The notes beneath the pieces were generated by a model, which did no database searches, had not been told where the DNA came from, and saw only the letters and a program-made list of their open reading frames with translations. Shown in pieces: positions 2 through 526 of a DNA stretch of 526 nucleotides; position 1 is the first letter of the stretch, and every line of letters starts with the position of its first letter. Both the position numbers and the translations under genes were made by a program. Origin of the DNA: a phage; sequence record EF517078.1, one strand, 5' to 3'.

Positions 2-238
2 GAAGGGACTCATCCGGTTAAACAGGTTGCTGGCGGTCTAGCTGGTCTGGCTGGTGGTACTGATGAAGCACAGATGGTGGTAGTACCACAAGCTGCCGCA
101 CAGATTGTTGACGTACCTGAGAAAGAGGTTTCCACTGAGGACGAAGCACAGACAGAAAGCGGACGCAAGAAAGCTCGTGCTGGCGGTAAGAAATTCTTGA
201 GTGTAACCCGTAGCTCCGGTGACGGTATCAACATTTAA
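2..238 (+). CDS. 7.3: 5'-partial CDS, C-terminal 78 aa of a small phage virion/tail-associated protein (T7 gp7.3-like); start codon lies upstream of the window
   Basis: Frame 2 is open from the window edge to TAA at 236-238. Translation: EGTHPVKQVAGGLAGLAGGTDEAQMVVVPQAAAQIVDVPEKEVSTEDEAQTESGRKKARAGGKKFLSVTRSSGDGINI*. It has a Gly/Ala-rich segment, an acidic segment and a basic C-terminus. The other + frames are closed by stops (frame 1 has TAA at 19-21 and TGA at 61-63). Assignment to T7-group gene 7.3 is from memory of the protein and its position just upstream of an HNH gene; it needs BLASTP confirmation. Confidence 0.75.
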   Translation, partial: EGTHPVKQVAGGLAGLAGGTDEAQMVVVPQAAAQIVDVPEKEVSTEDEAQTESGRKKARAGGKKFLSVTRSSGDGINI

Positions 239-240
239 TC

Positions 241-247
241 AGAAGGT
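241..247 (+). promoter_or_regulatory. Shine-Dalgarno-like ribosome binding site (AGAAGGT) for the downstream GTG-initiated ORF
   Basis: AGAAGGT at 241-247 matches the AAGGAGGT consensus over the AAGG/AGGT core and sits 4-5 nt upstream of GTG at 252-254. The spacer between the upstream stop (236-238) and this start is only 13 nt, consistent with tight phage gene packing and possible translational coupling. Confidence 0.4.
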
Positions 248-251
248 TATC

Positions 252-526
252 GTGGAAAACTGCATTGAATGGACCGGAAGTGCCAACTCTAAGGGTTATG
301 GTCGTAAGTGAGTTAATGGTAAACTTGTGACTCCACATAGGCACATCTATGAGGAAACATATGGTCCAGTTCCAACAGGAATTGTGGTGATGCATATCTG
401 CGATAACCCTAGGTGCTATAACATAAAGCACCTTACGCTTGGAACTCCAAAGGATAATTCCGAGGACATGGTTACCAAAGGTAGACAGGCTAAAAGAGAG
501 GAACTAAGCAAGAAACTTACAGAGTC
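252..526 (+). CDS. 7.7: HNH endonuclease (HNH_3 family, homing-endonuclease-like; T7 gp7.7-like), GTG start, 3'-partial, interrupted by an in-frame TGA at 309-311 (possible pseudogene or readthrough)
   Basis: Frame 3 translation from GTG 252: MENCIEWTGSANSKGYGRK*VNGKLVTPHRHIYEETYGPVPTGIVVMHICDNPRCYNIKHLTLGTPKDNSEDMVTKGRQAKREELSKKLTE, running off the window end. It carries the HNH_3 signature in order: C-x-E-W-T-G, S-K-G-Y-G-R, V-N-G-K, H-R, G-P-x-P-x-G, V-x-H-x-C-D-N-P-x-C-x-N-x-x-H-L-x-L-G-T, N-x-x-D. Frame 3 is open from 207 and contains no ATG before the motif. GTG 252 is the only candidate start with an SD; GTG 219 has none. Apart from the single TGA the frame is uninterrupted for 91 codons. 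Assignment to gene 7.7 is from memory and unverified. Confidence 0.72.

Follow-up and report, generated by a model that had tools for sequence, protein, structure and literature searches.

The stretch of DNA analysed here, 526 bases long and called the window below, raises the question of why the reading frame of a phage HNH endonuclease should be interrupted by a TGA (opal) codon. The codon could be a mutation that inactivates the gene, an error in the sequence, or a signal for recoding. It is important to place the window among its relatives, to establish what the codon was before it became a stop, and to compare the substitutions around it with those of T7 phages of known or presumed history.

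Identity of the locus

The best match of the window is phage T7, positions 19597-20122, and the alignment is gap-free over the full length with an identity of 97.3%. None of the 50,697 phage genomes compared is closer to the window than wild-type T7, and 113 T7-type records are found in the band of 95-99% identity. No exact counterpart of the window was found by exact-pattern scans of viral, metagenome and genome collections, nor by look-up of its exact products, and a megablast search of the window against plasmids and E. coli genomes was empty. By this alignment, the window derives from phage T7.

In the T7 reference, the region consists of the final 78 codons of gene 7.3, a spacer of 13 bases, and gene 7.7, which is annotated as an HNH endonuclease with a GTG start. 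The product of gene 7.3 is a tail/host-range protein needed for infectivity according to the T7 reference annotation. This upstream neighbour is present in the window, which ends on the 5' side of gene 8. A scan of the window for promoters and terminators found none. The coordinates of the features are collected in Table 1.

Table 1. Features of the 526-base window, with coordinates counted from its first base.
Feature	Position	Strand	Remarks
Gene 7.3, 3' part, tail/host-range protein	2-238	+	Last 78 codons and TAA at 236-238; seven missense changes relative to T7; PHROG 1320 match, 3.3e-21
Gene 7.7 Shine-Dalgarno sequence	241-247	+	AGGAGGT in T7, AGAAGGT in the window; G>A at 243, intergenic; from the T7 alignment
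Gene 7.7 HNH endonuclease, codons 1-19	252-308	+	Annotated GTG start; D3N (258), G10S (279), V11A (283)
TGA opal codon replacing TGG (Trp20)	309-311	+	G>A at 311; TGG in six relatives, Trp in the nearest protein clusters
Remainder of the gene 7.7 frame, codons 21-91, HNH_3 domain	312-524	+	3' of the stop; synonymous change at 356, G82R (495)
Stretch holding the 14 differences from wild-type T7	8-495	+	From the alignment
In-frame GTG, five codons past the stop	327-329	+	Without a convincing Shine-Dalgarno sequence; conceivable but unsupported restart
AGGA (377-380) ahead of in-frame GTG 384, GTG 387 and ATG 390	377-392	+	Val45, Val46, Met47; possible weak internal start

The gene 7.7 frame and the effect of the stop codon

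In frame 3 of the + strand, the translation is VENCIEWTGSANSKGYGRK up to the stop at 309-311 and continues with VNGKLVTPHRHIYEETYGPVPTGIVVMHICDNPRCYNIKH after it. There are 19 codons from GTG 252 to AAG 306-308, and it was confirmed that translation from this GTG would end after them. The first-pass annotation was also correct in describing the TGA as an interruption of the HNH frame without any frameshift. The conceptual read-through product matches the Pfam family HNH_3 (PF13392) with 50.8 bits, the cut-off being 24.8, and the segment after the stop scores 51.6 bits by itself. The PHROG HNH families align with residues 3 to 84, spanning the stop, with E-values down to 1.7e-29. Since this alignment runs across the stop, the N-terminal segment belongs to the gene, as had been assumed at first reading, and the T7 annotation of gene 7.7 starts at the identical GTG.

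Invariant columns were defined across nine sequences, and all of them are present in the window frame: H48, C50, D51, N52, C55, H60 and N69, together with C4, Y16 and R18 in the N-terminal part. The earlier description of a frame that is otherwise intact is inaccurate, as it overlooks the changes D3N, G10S, V11A and G82R and the altered Shine-Dalgarno sequence. The His of the PHRH sequence is not an invariant residue, as one cluster has PRRQ. The frame of an HNH_3 gene should be uninterrupted, whereas TGA is found here at codon 20. Judged by its sequence, the gene 7.7 of the window is a mutant or pseudogene allele of the HNH_3 family and not a functional member.

In the AlphaFold model of T7 gp7.7 (mean pLDDT of 81), Trp20 is located in the first strand of a beta-hairpin (residues 19-21 and 24-26). 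The hairpin is followed by a helix (residues 28-37), then by a beta-beta-alpha core (residues 45-48, 61-64 and 66-76), in which H48 is found on strand 45-48, while the C-terminus forms a helix-turn-helix-like domain. A sequence search of solved structures with gp7.7 gave nothing meaningful, and a Foldseek comparison of the model with the PDB gave weak His-Me-finger-like matches only (I-PpoI with an E-value of 0.09, and SMAD MH1). No precise structural homologue of gp7.7 is claimed, and its role as a nuclease is a predicted one.

Codon 20 is TGG in all six relatives, namely T7, P82, YpsP-G, phiA1122, LNA7 and Bas102. In a large protein collection, Trp occupies this position in the five closest protein clusters, and Phe, Ser or Tyr is found in the more distant ones. 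Since TGG is present in wild-type T7 and in the five other relatives, the TGA of the window is, on this comparison, a derived state that arose by a G>A transition at the last position of the Trp20 codon. A nonsense mutation from TGG had been among the explanations offered from the window alone, with a search for Trp in homologues as its check, and it is supported by both of these results.

Of the invariant residues, no more than three (Cys4, Tyr16 and Arg18) are retained in the predicted product of 19 residues. A restart of translation at GTG 327 or in the cluster at 384-392 would give a product without C4, Y16 and R18, and the product from 384-392 would also be without the beta-hairpin and helix 28-37. 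Because both the truncated product and the restart products are without invariant residues, we infer that the gene 7.7 allele is most likely null. The first-pass annotation had named ATG 390 as the sole in-frame ATG downstream, with a poor Shine-Dalgarno sequence and a product without the first catalytic His. A further ATG is found at 468-470 (Met73), and GTG 327, 384 and 387 are in frame as well. The AGGA at 377-380, located 9 nt upstream of ATG 390, makes a weak to moderate Shine-Dalgarno sequence, so that a poor site, though not an absent one, is an adequate description. The loss of the first catalytic His is not borne out, as the invariant residues H48 and H60 are both encoded 3' of ATG 390.

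A reduced T7 chassis was made without gene 7.7, whose locus served there for insertion (PMC12153263), and a list of the genes that were taken out or interrupted in genome-reduced T7 includes it (PMC9825161). In the T7 clone MZ375281, gene 7.7 is absent and gene 8 comes next after gene 7.3. Gene 7.7 is dispensable, and a null allele of it is therefore tolerated by the phage. The engineered phages (MZ375281; the T7-B chassis of PMC12153263) resemble the window in that the function of gene 7.7 is lost. However, they carry clean deletions made by design in viable phage, while the window has a point nonsense mutation with the coding sequence retained. In comparison with wild-type T7 gene 7.7 (NP_041994), the window has the same locus, GTG start and gene 7.3 neighbour, 269 of 275 bases in common, and all the invariant residues encoded; it differs in the TGA at codon 20, in four missense changes, in a Shine-Dalgarno sequence that should be weaker, and in the predicted peptide of 19 residues. 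For biology the allele is of minor importance: in the podovirus that has been studied most, a selfish nuclease gene that can be dispensed with was knocked out by a point mutation, of a type long on record from mutagenised T7 lines.

The fourteen substitutions and the probable action of a mutagen

The window differs from T7 by 14 substitutions, which on the coding strand are 11 G>A (positions 8, 12, 63, 206, 222, 243, 258, 279, 311, 356 and 495), one C>T (195), one A>T (81) and one T>C (283). Twelve of the 14 are GC>AT changes. An isolated sequencing miscall at 311 would be less likely on this evidence, because there are 13 further substitutions in the 526 bases, 11 of them GC>AT. Depending on the relative, the T7 base is found at 8 to 12 of the 14 variant sites, and P82 has it at all 14. 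Since the relatives side with T7, most of the states found in the window are derived. This pattern of 14 substitutions behind the stop had been missed in the first-pass annotation.

The mutated guanine is preceded on its 5' side by a purine at 10 of the 11 G>A sites, compared with a baseline of 62% in the stretch (p = 0.04, for a test that rests on 11 sites only). The C>T at 195 has a pyrimidine on its 3' side, equivalent to the purine-G context on the other strand, so that 11 of 12 changes are found in this context. The sequence context would thus give moderate support to alkylation over deamination. The polarity of the strands, 11 G>A to one C>T, has a p-value of 0.02 when calculated from the base composition and of 0.001 when calculated from the ratio in P82. 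This one-strand polarity is the sole mildly unusual feature of the window.

The protein is altered by 12 of the 13 coding changes, not far from the 79% that would be expected for random unselected G>A. There are seven missense changes in the 78 codons of gene 7.3, and four of them affect gp7.3 positions at which T7, YpsP-G, phiA1122 and Bas102 agree: R>H (position 12), S>F (195), A>T (206) and G>D (222). As far as the coding changes tell, there is no sign of purifying selection on the substitutions. With four invariant positions altered in the product of the essential gene 7.3, it is doubtful whether the molecule is a viable phage. Outside the coding sequences, the G>A at 243 changes the core of the gene 7.7 Shine-Dalgarno sequence from GGAGG to GAAGG, and this change should weaken it, making a second hit on the expression of gene 7.7.

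How surprising a stop codon is under such a load can be calculated. The part of gene 7.7 in the window has 73 G, and a G>A change would create a stop at 4 of them; given five G>A changes among these 73, the probability of at least one stop is 0.25. With this chance under the mutational load, the opal codon is unsurprising.

The complete genome of the T7 isolate P82 (AY264778) was compared with the T7 reference. It has 321 substitutions, of which 161 are C>T and 133 are G>A, and 92% are GC>AT. The purine-G (or C-pyrimidine) context is found at 83% of its GC>AT sites, against a genome baseline of 51%. We take P82 to be a nitrosoguanidine line from the mutagen-plus-bottleneck work of the Bull laboratory, and these lines are said to originate from Bull et al. 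in 2003. The spectrum of substitutions and the purine-G context are thus alike in P82 and in the window. The differences are that P82 has none of the 14 window variants, that its density is about one third (a mean of 4.2 and a maximum of 10 per 526-nt window, compared with 14 in the window studied), that it has no overall strand bias (runs test z = -0.7, without overall clustering by strand), and that its gene 7.7 is annotated as intact. Locally, P82 has 526-base windows with a polarity of 7:0 and one run of ten consecutive G>A over about 1 kb (8969-10017 in T7 coordinates). Clusters coordinated by strand therefore occur in places in P82 though its genome is balanced overall, and they are weaker than the one in the window studied.

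Bottleneck work on T7 is on record (PMC4811365), and according to PMC6042481 GC>AT changes dominate T7 after mutagenesis by nitrosoguanidine or hydroxylamine. In T7 grown in nitrosoguanidine, nonsense codons arose 11 times, all of them by GC>AT (Cunningham et al. 1997, as summarised in PMC5850294). The window is similar in having a stop made by GC>AT within a load dominated by GC>AT. The stops in the propagated phage were, in the account given of them, parallel and adaptive, while the stop of the window carries no evidence of selection. A change of TGG to TGA by GC>AT in mutagenised T7 is a known kind of event and an ordinary one, and it is not a signal for recoding. The nonsense events of Cunningham et al. 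reportedly lay in genes other than 7.7.

These comparisons allow us to propose that the window is probably T7 that has been under chemical mutagenesis, and that the stop is a null allele produced by the mutational load. An SN1 alkylating agent, for example N-methyl-N'-nitro-N-nitrosoguanidine, would give GC>AT changes at guanines preceded by a purine. The + strand would have taken most of the lesions, in one or a few episodes. The one-strand polarity could then come from lesion segregation, in which every line of progeny carries on the lesions of a single parental strand, or alternatively from clustering at the replication fork. Mutation clustering associated with the replication fork has long been described for nitrosoguanidine. 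The change of Trp20 from TGG to TGA would be one hit in this load and would cut gp7.7 after 19 residues. A mutagen of this identity and a laboratory origin are the most likely for the window.

As for the signature expected from such an agent, the dominance of GC>AT (12 of 14) and the preference for purine-G are both found. Exposure over many generations should affect the two strands equally, and this was not found, with 11 G>A against one C>T. The unequal strands would suggest one exposure or a few, clustering at the fork, or a different agent. A strand-coordinated cluster would fit equally well with deamination of the minus strand or with a damaged single molecule that was read once.

Other explanations of the opal codon

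The last of these, an artefact of the sequence, would require very low coverage or a single molecule, with cytosine deamination on the minus strand, some other damage or a strand-specific error. In that case the phage population would have neither the TGA nor most of the other G>A changes. The ratio of 11 G>A to one C>T is that of one damaged strand read once, the record has 526 bases and is without an exact counterpart in the collections searched, and the hits at invariant residues of gp7.3 are easier to understand if the molecule never had to function. However, the purine-G context (10 of 11) corresponds to alkylation as in the real T7 genome P82 and not to known deamination damage. Two changes that are not GC>AT are also present, and an assembled consensus normally averages out random damage. 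An artefact is therefore considered unlikely.

Ordinary divergence of a wild T7-like phage with a decaying gene 7.7 pseudogene is a much poorer explanation, and we regard it as very improbable. It would be in agreement with the frequent loss of selfish HNH genes and with the many relatives that match the gene 7.3 part only, and at 258, 283 and 356 the window has the bases of LNA7 and Bas102. Against this, there are 11 G>A and no A>G, and the coding changes, non-synonymous in 12 of 13 cases, extend into the essential gene 7.3 and alter invariant residues there. Natural divergence in the relatives has another appearance: gene 7.7 of Bas102 has 132 differences from T7, which are symmetric in direction and more often synonymous than non-synonymous, and in YpsP-G and phiA1122 a single one of the 393 nt of gene 7.7 is other than in T7. 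The coincidences with Bas102 come close to what chance would give, about one of 6 being expected by a rough estimate (p of about 0.06).

The three bases shared with LNA7 and Bas102, which are distant relatives, are judged to be chance homoplasy. Recombination with an allele similar to that of Bas102 or LNA7 was also considered and rejected, as the window is identical to T7 at many intervening sites at which those phages differ.

Editing of the T7 minus strand by a cytosine deaminase specific for single strands, either a host toxin or defence enzyme or an engineered one, is just as hard to accept. It would account for the strong one-strand polarity together with the high local density, and for a pattern more extreme than in P82. 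On the minus strand, however, the 5' neighbours of the edited C are 3 T, 3 C, 3 G and 2 A, with no preference for TC, CC or WRC, and the sole context signal is found 3' of the C and is the signature of alkylation. An APOBEC/AID-type context on the minus strand was rejected because no preference exists among the edited sites. Hypermutation of T7 by a deaminase was also not met in the literature, which was searched for other purposes. The narrower proposal of natural hypermutation, in which a bacterial single-strand DNA cytosine deaminase would serve as an anti-phage weapon and edit the T7 template strand, with the opal codon as collateral damage, is extremely unlikely. If true, such editing would be the bacterial counterpart of restriction by APOBEC.

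The possible recoding of the stop was examined by several comparisons. The stop is not conserved: it is absent from all six relatives, which have TGG, and from the five closest clusters, which have Trp. The RNA at the stop has no stimulatory structure by its folding energy (MFE of -14.6 kcal/mol, with a shuffle mean of -14.0 and z of -0.21), and no Rfam family, SECIS included, matches the sequence around the stop at E <= 1. The use of TGA was counted in the parent genome T7, where it terminates 21 of 56 CDSs, including genes 4, 5, 9 and 19. A selenocysteine or readthrough signal was rejected in the absence of a structure and of an Rfam match, and genetic code 4, in which UGA is read as Trp, was rejected by the TGA terminators.

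Since the stop is unique to the window, without structure or Rfam match, and TGA serves as a terminator in T7, a reassigned UGA, selenocysteine and a designed control of dosage are unsupported, and the idea of the first-pass annotation that readthrough keeps the nuclease at a low dosage has to be given up for the same reasons. Functional recoding of any of these kinds, whether by a code 4-like or suppressor host, by selenocysteine or by dosage-limiting readthrough, is scarcely credible, for although the stop is placed exactly on a Trp codon and a leak by tRNA-Trp would restore the wild-type residue, the stop occurs in no relative examined, stable structure and Rfam matches are absent, the gene 7.7 Shine-Dalgarno sequence is also damaged, and T7 itself ends genes with TGA. 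The tRNA-Trp of E. coli is a natural near-cognate reader of UGA, and its leak restores Trp at a low level. Any residual readthrough in the window would be accidental and not designed.

With chemical mutagenesis as the preferred explanation, the reading frame should be annotated as a gene 7.7 pseudogene or mutant allele and not as a recoded or readthrough gene. The record is that of a heavily mutated T7 derivative, and its proteins, including gp7.3 with its seven substitutions, are unfit for use as natural variants.

A separate observation was made on the Yersinia phages. In YpsP-G and phiA1122, gene 7.3 adjoins the near-identical gene 7.7 but has indels and several substitutions relative to T7. 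In the loci compared, gene 7.7 occupies positions 543-935 and 466-858 in these phages and positions 1752-2144 in T7. A near-identical gene in otherwise diverged genomes would fit a recent horizontal spread of the HNH gene 7.7.
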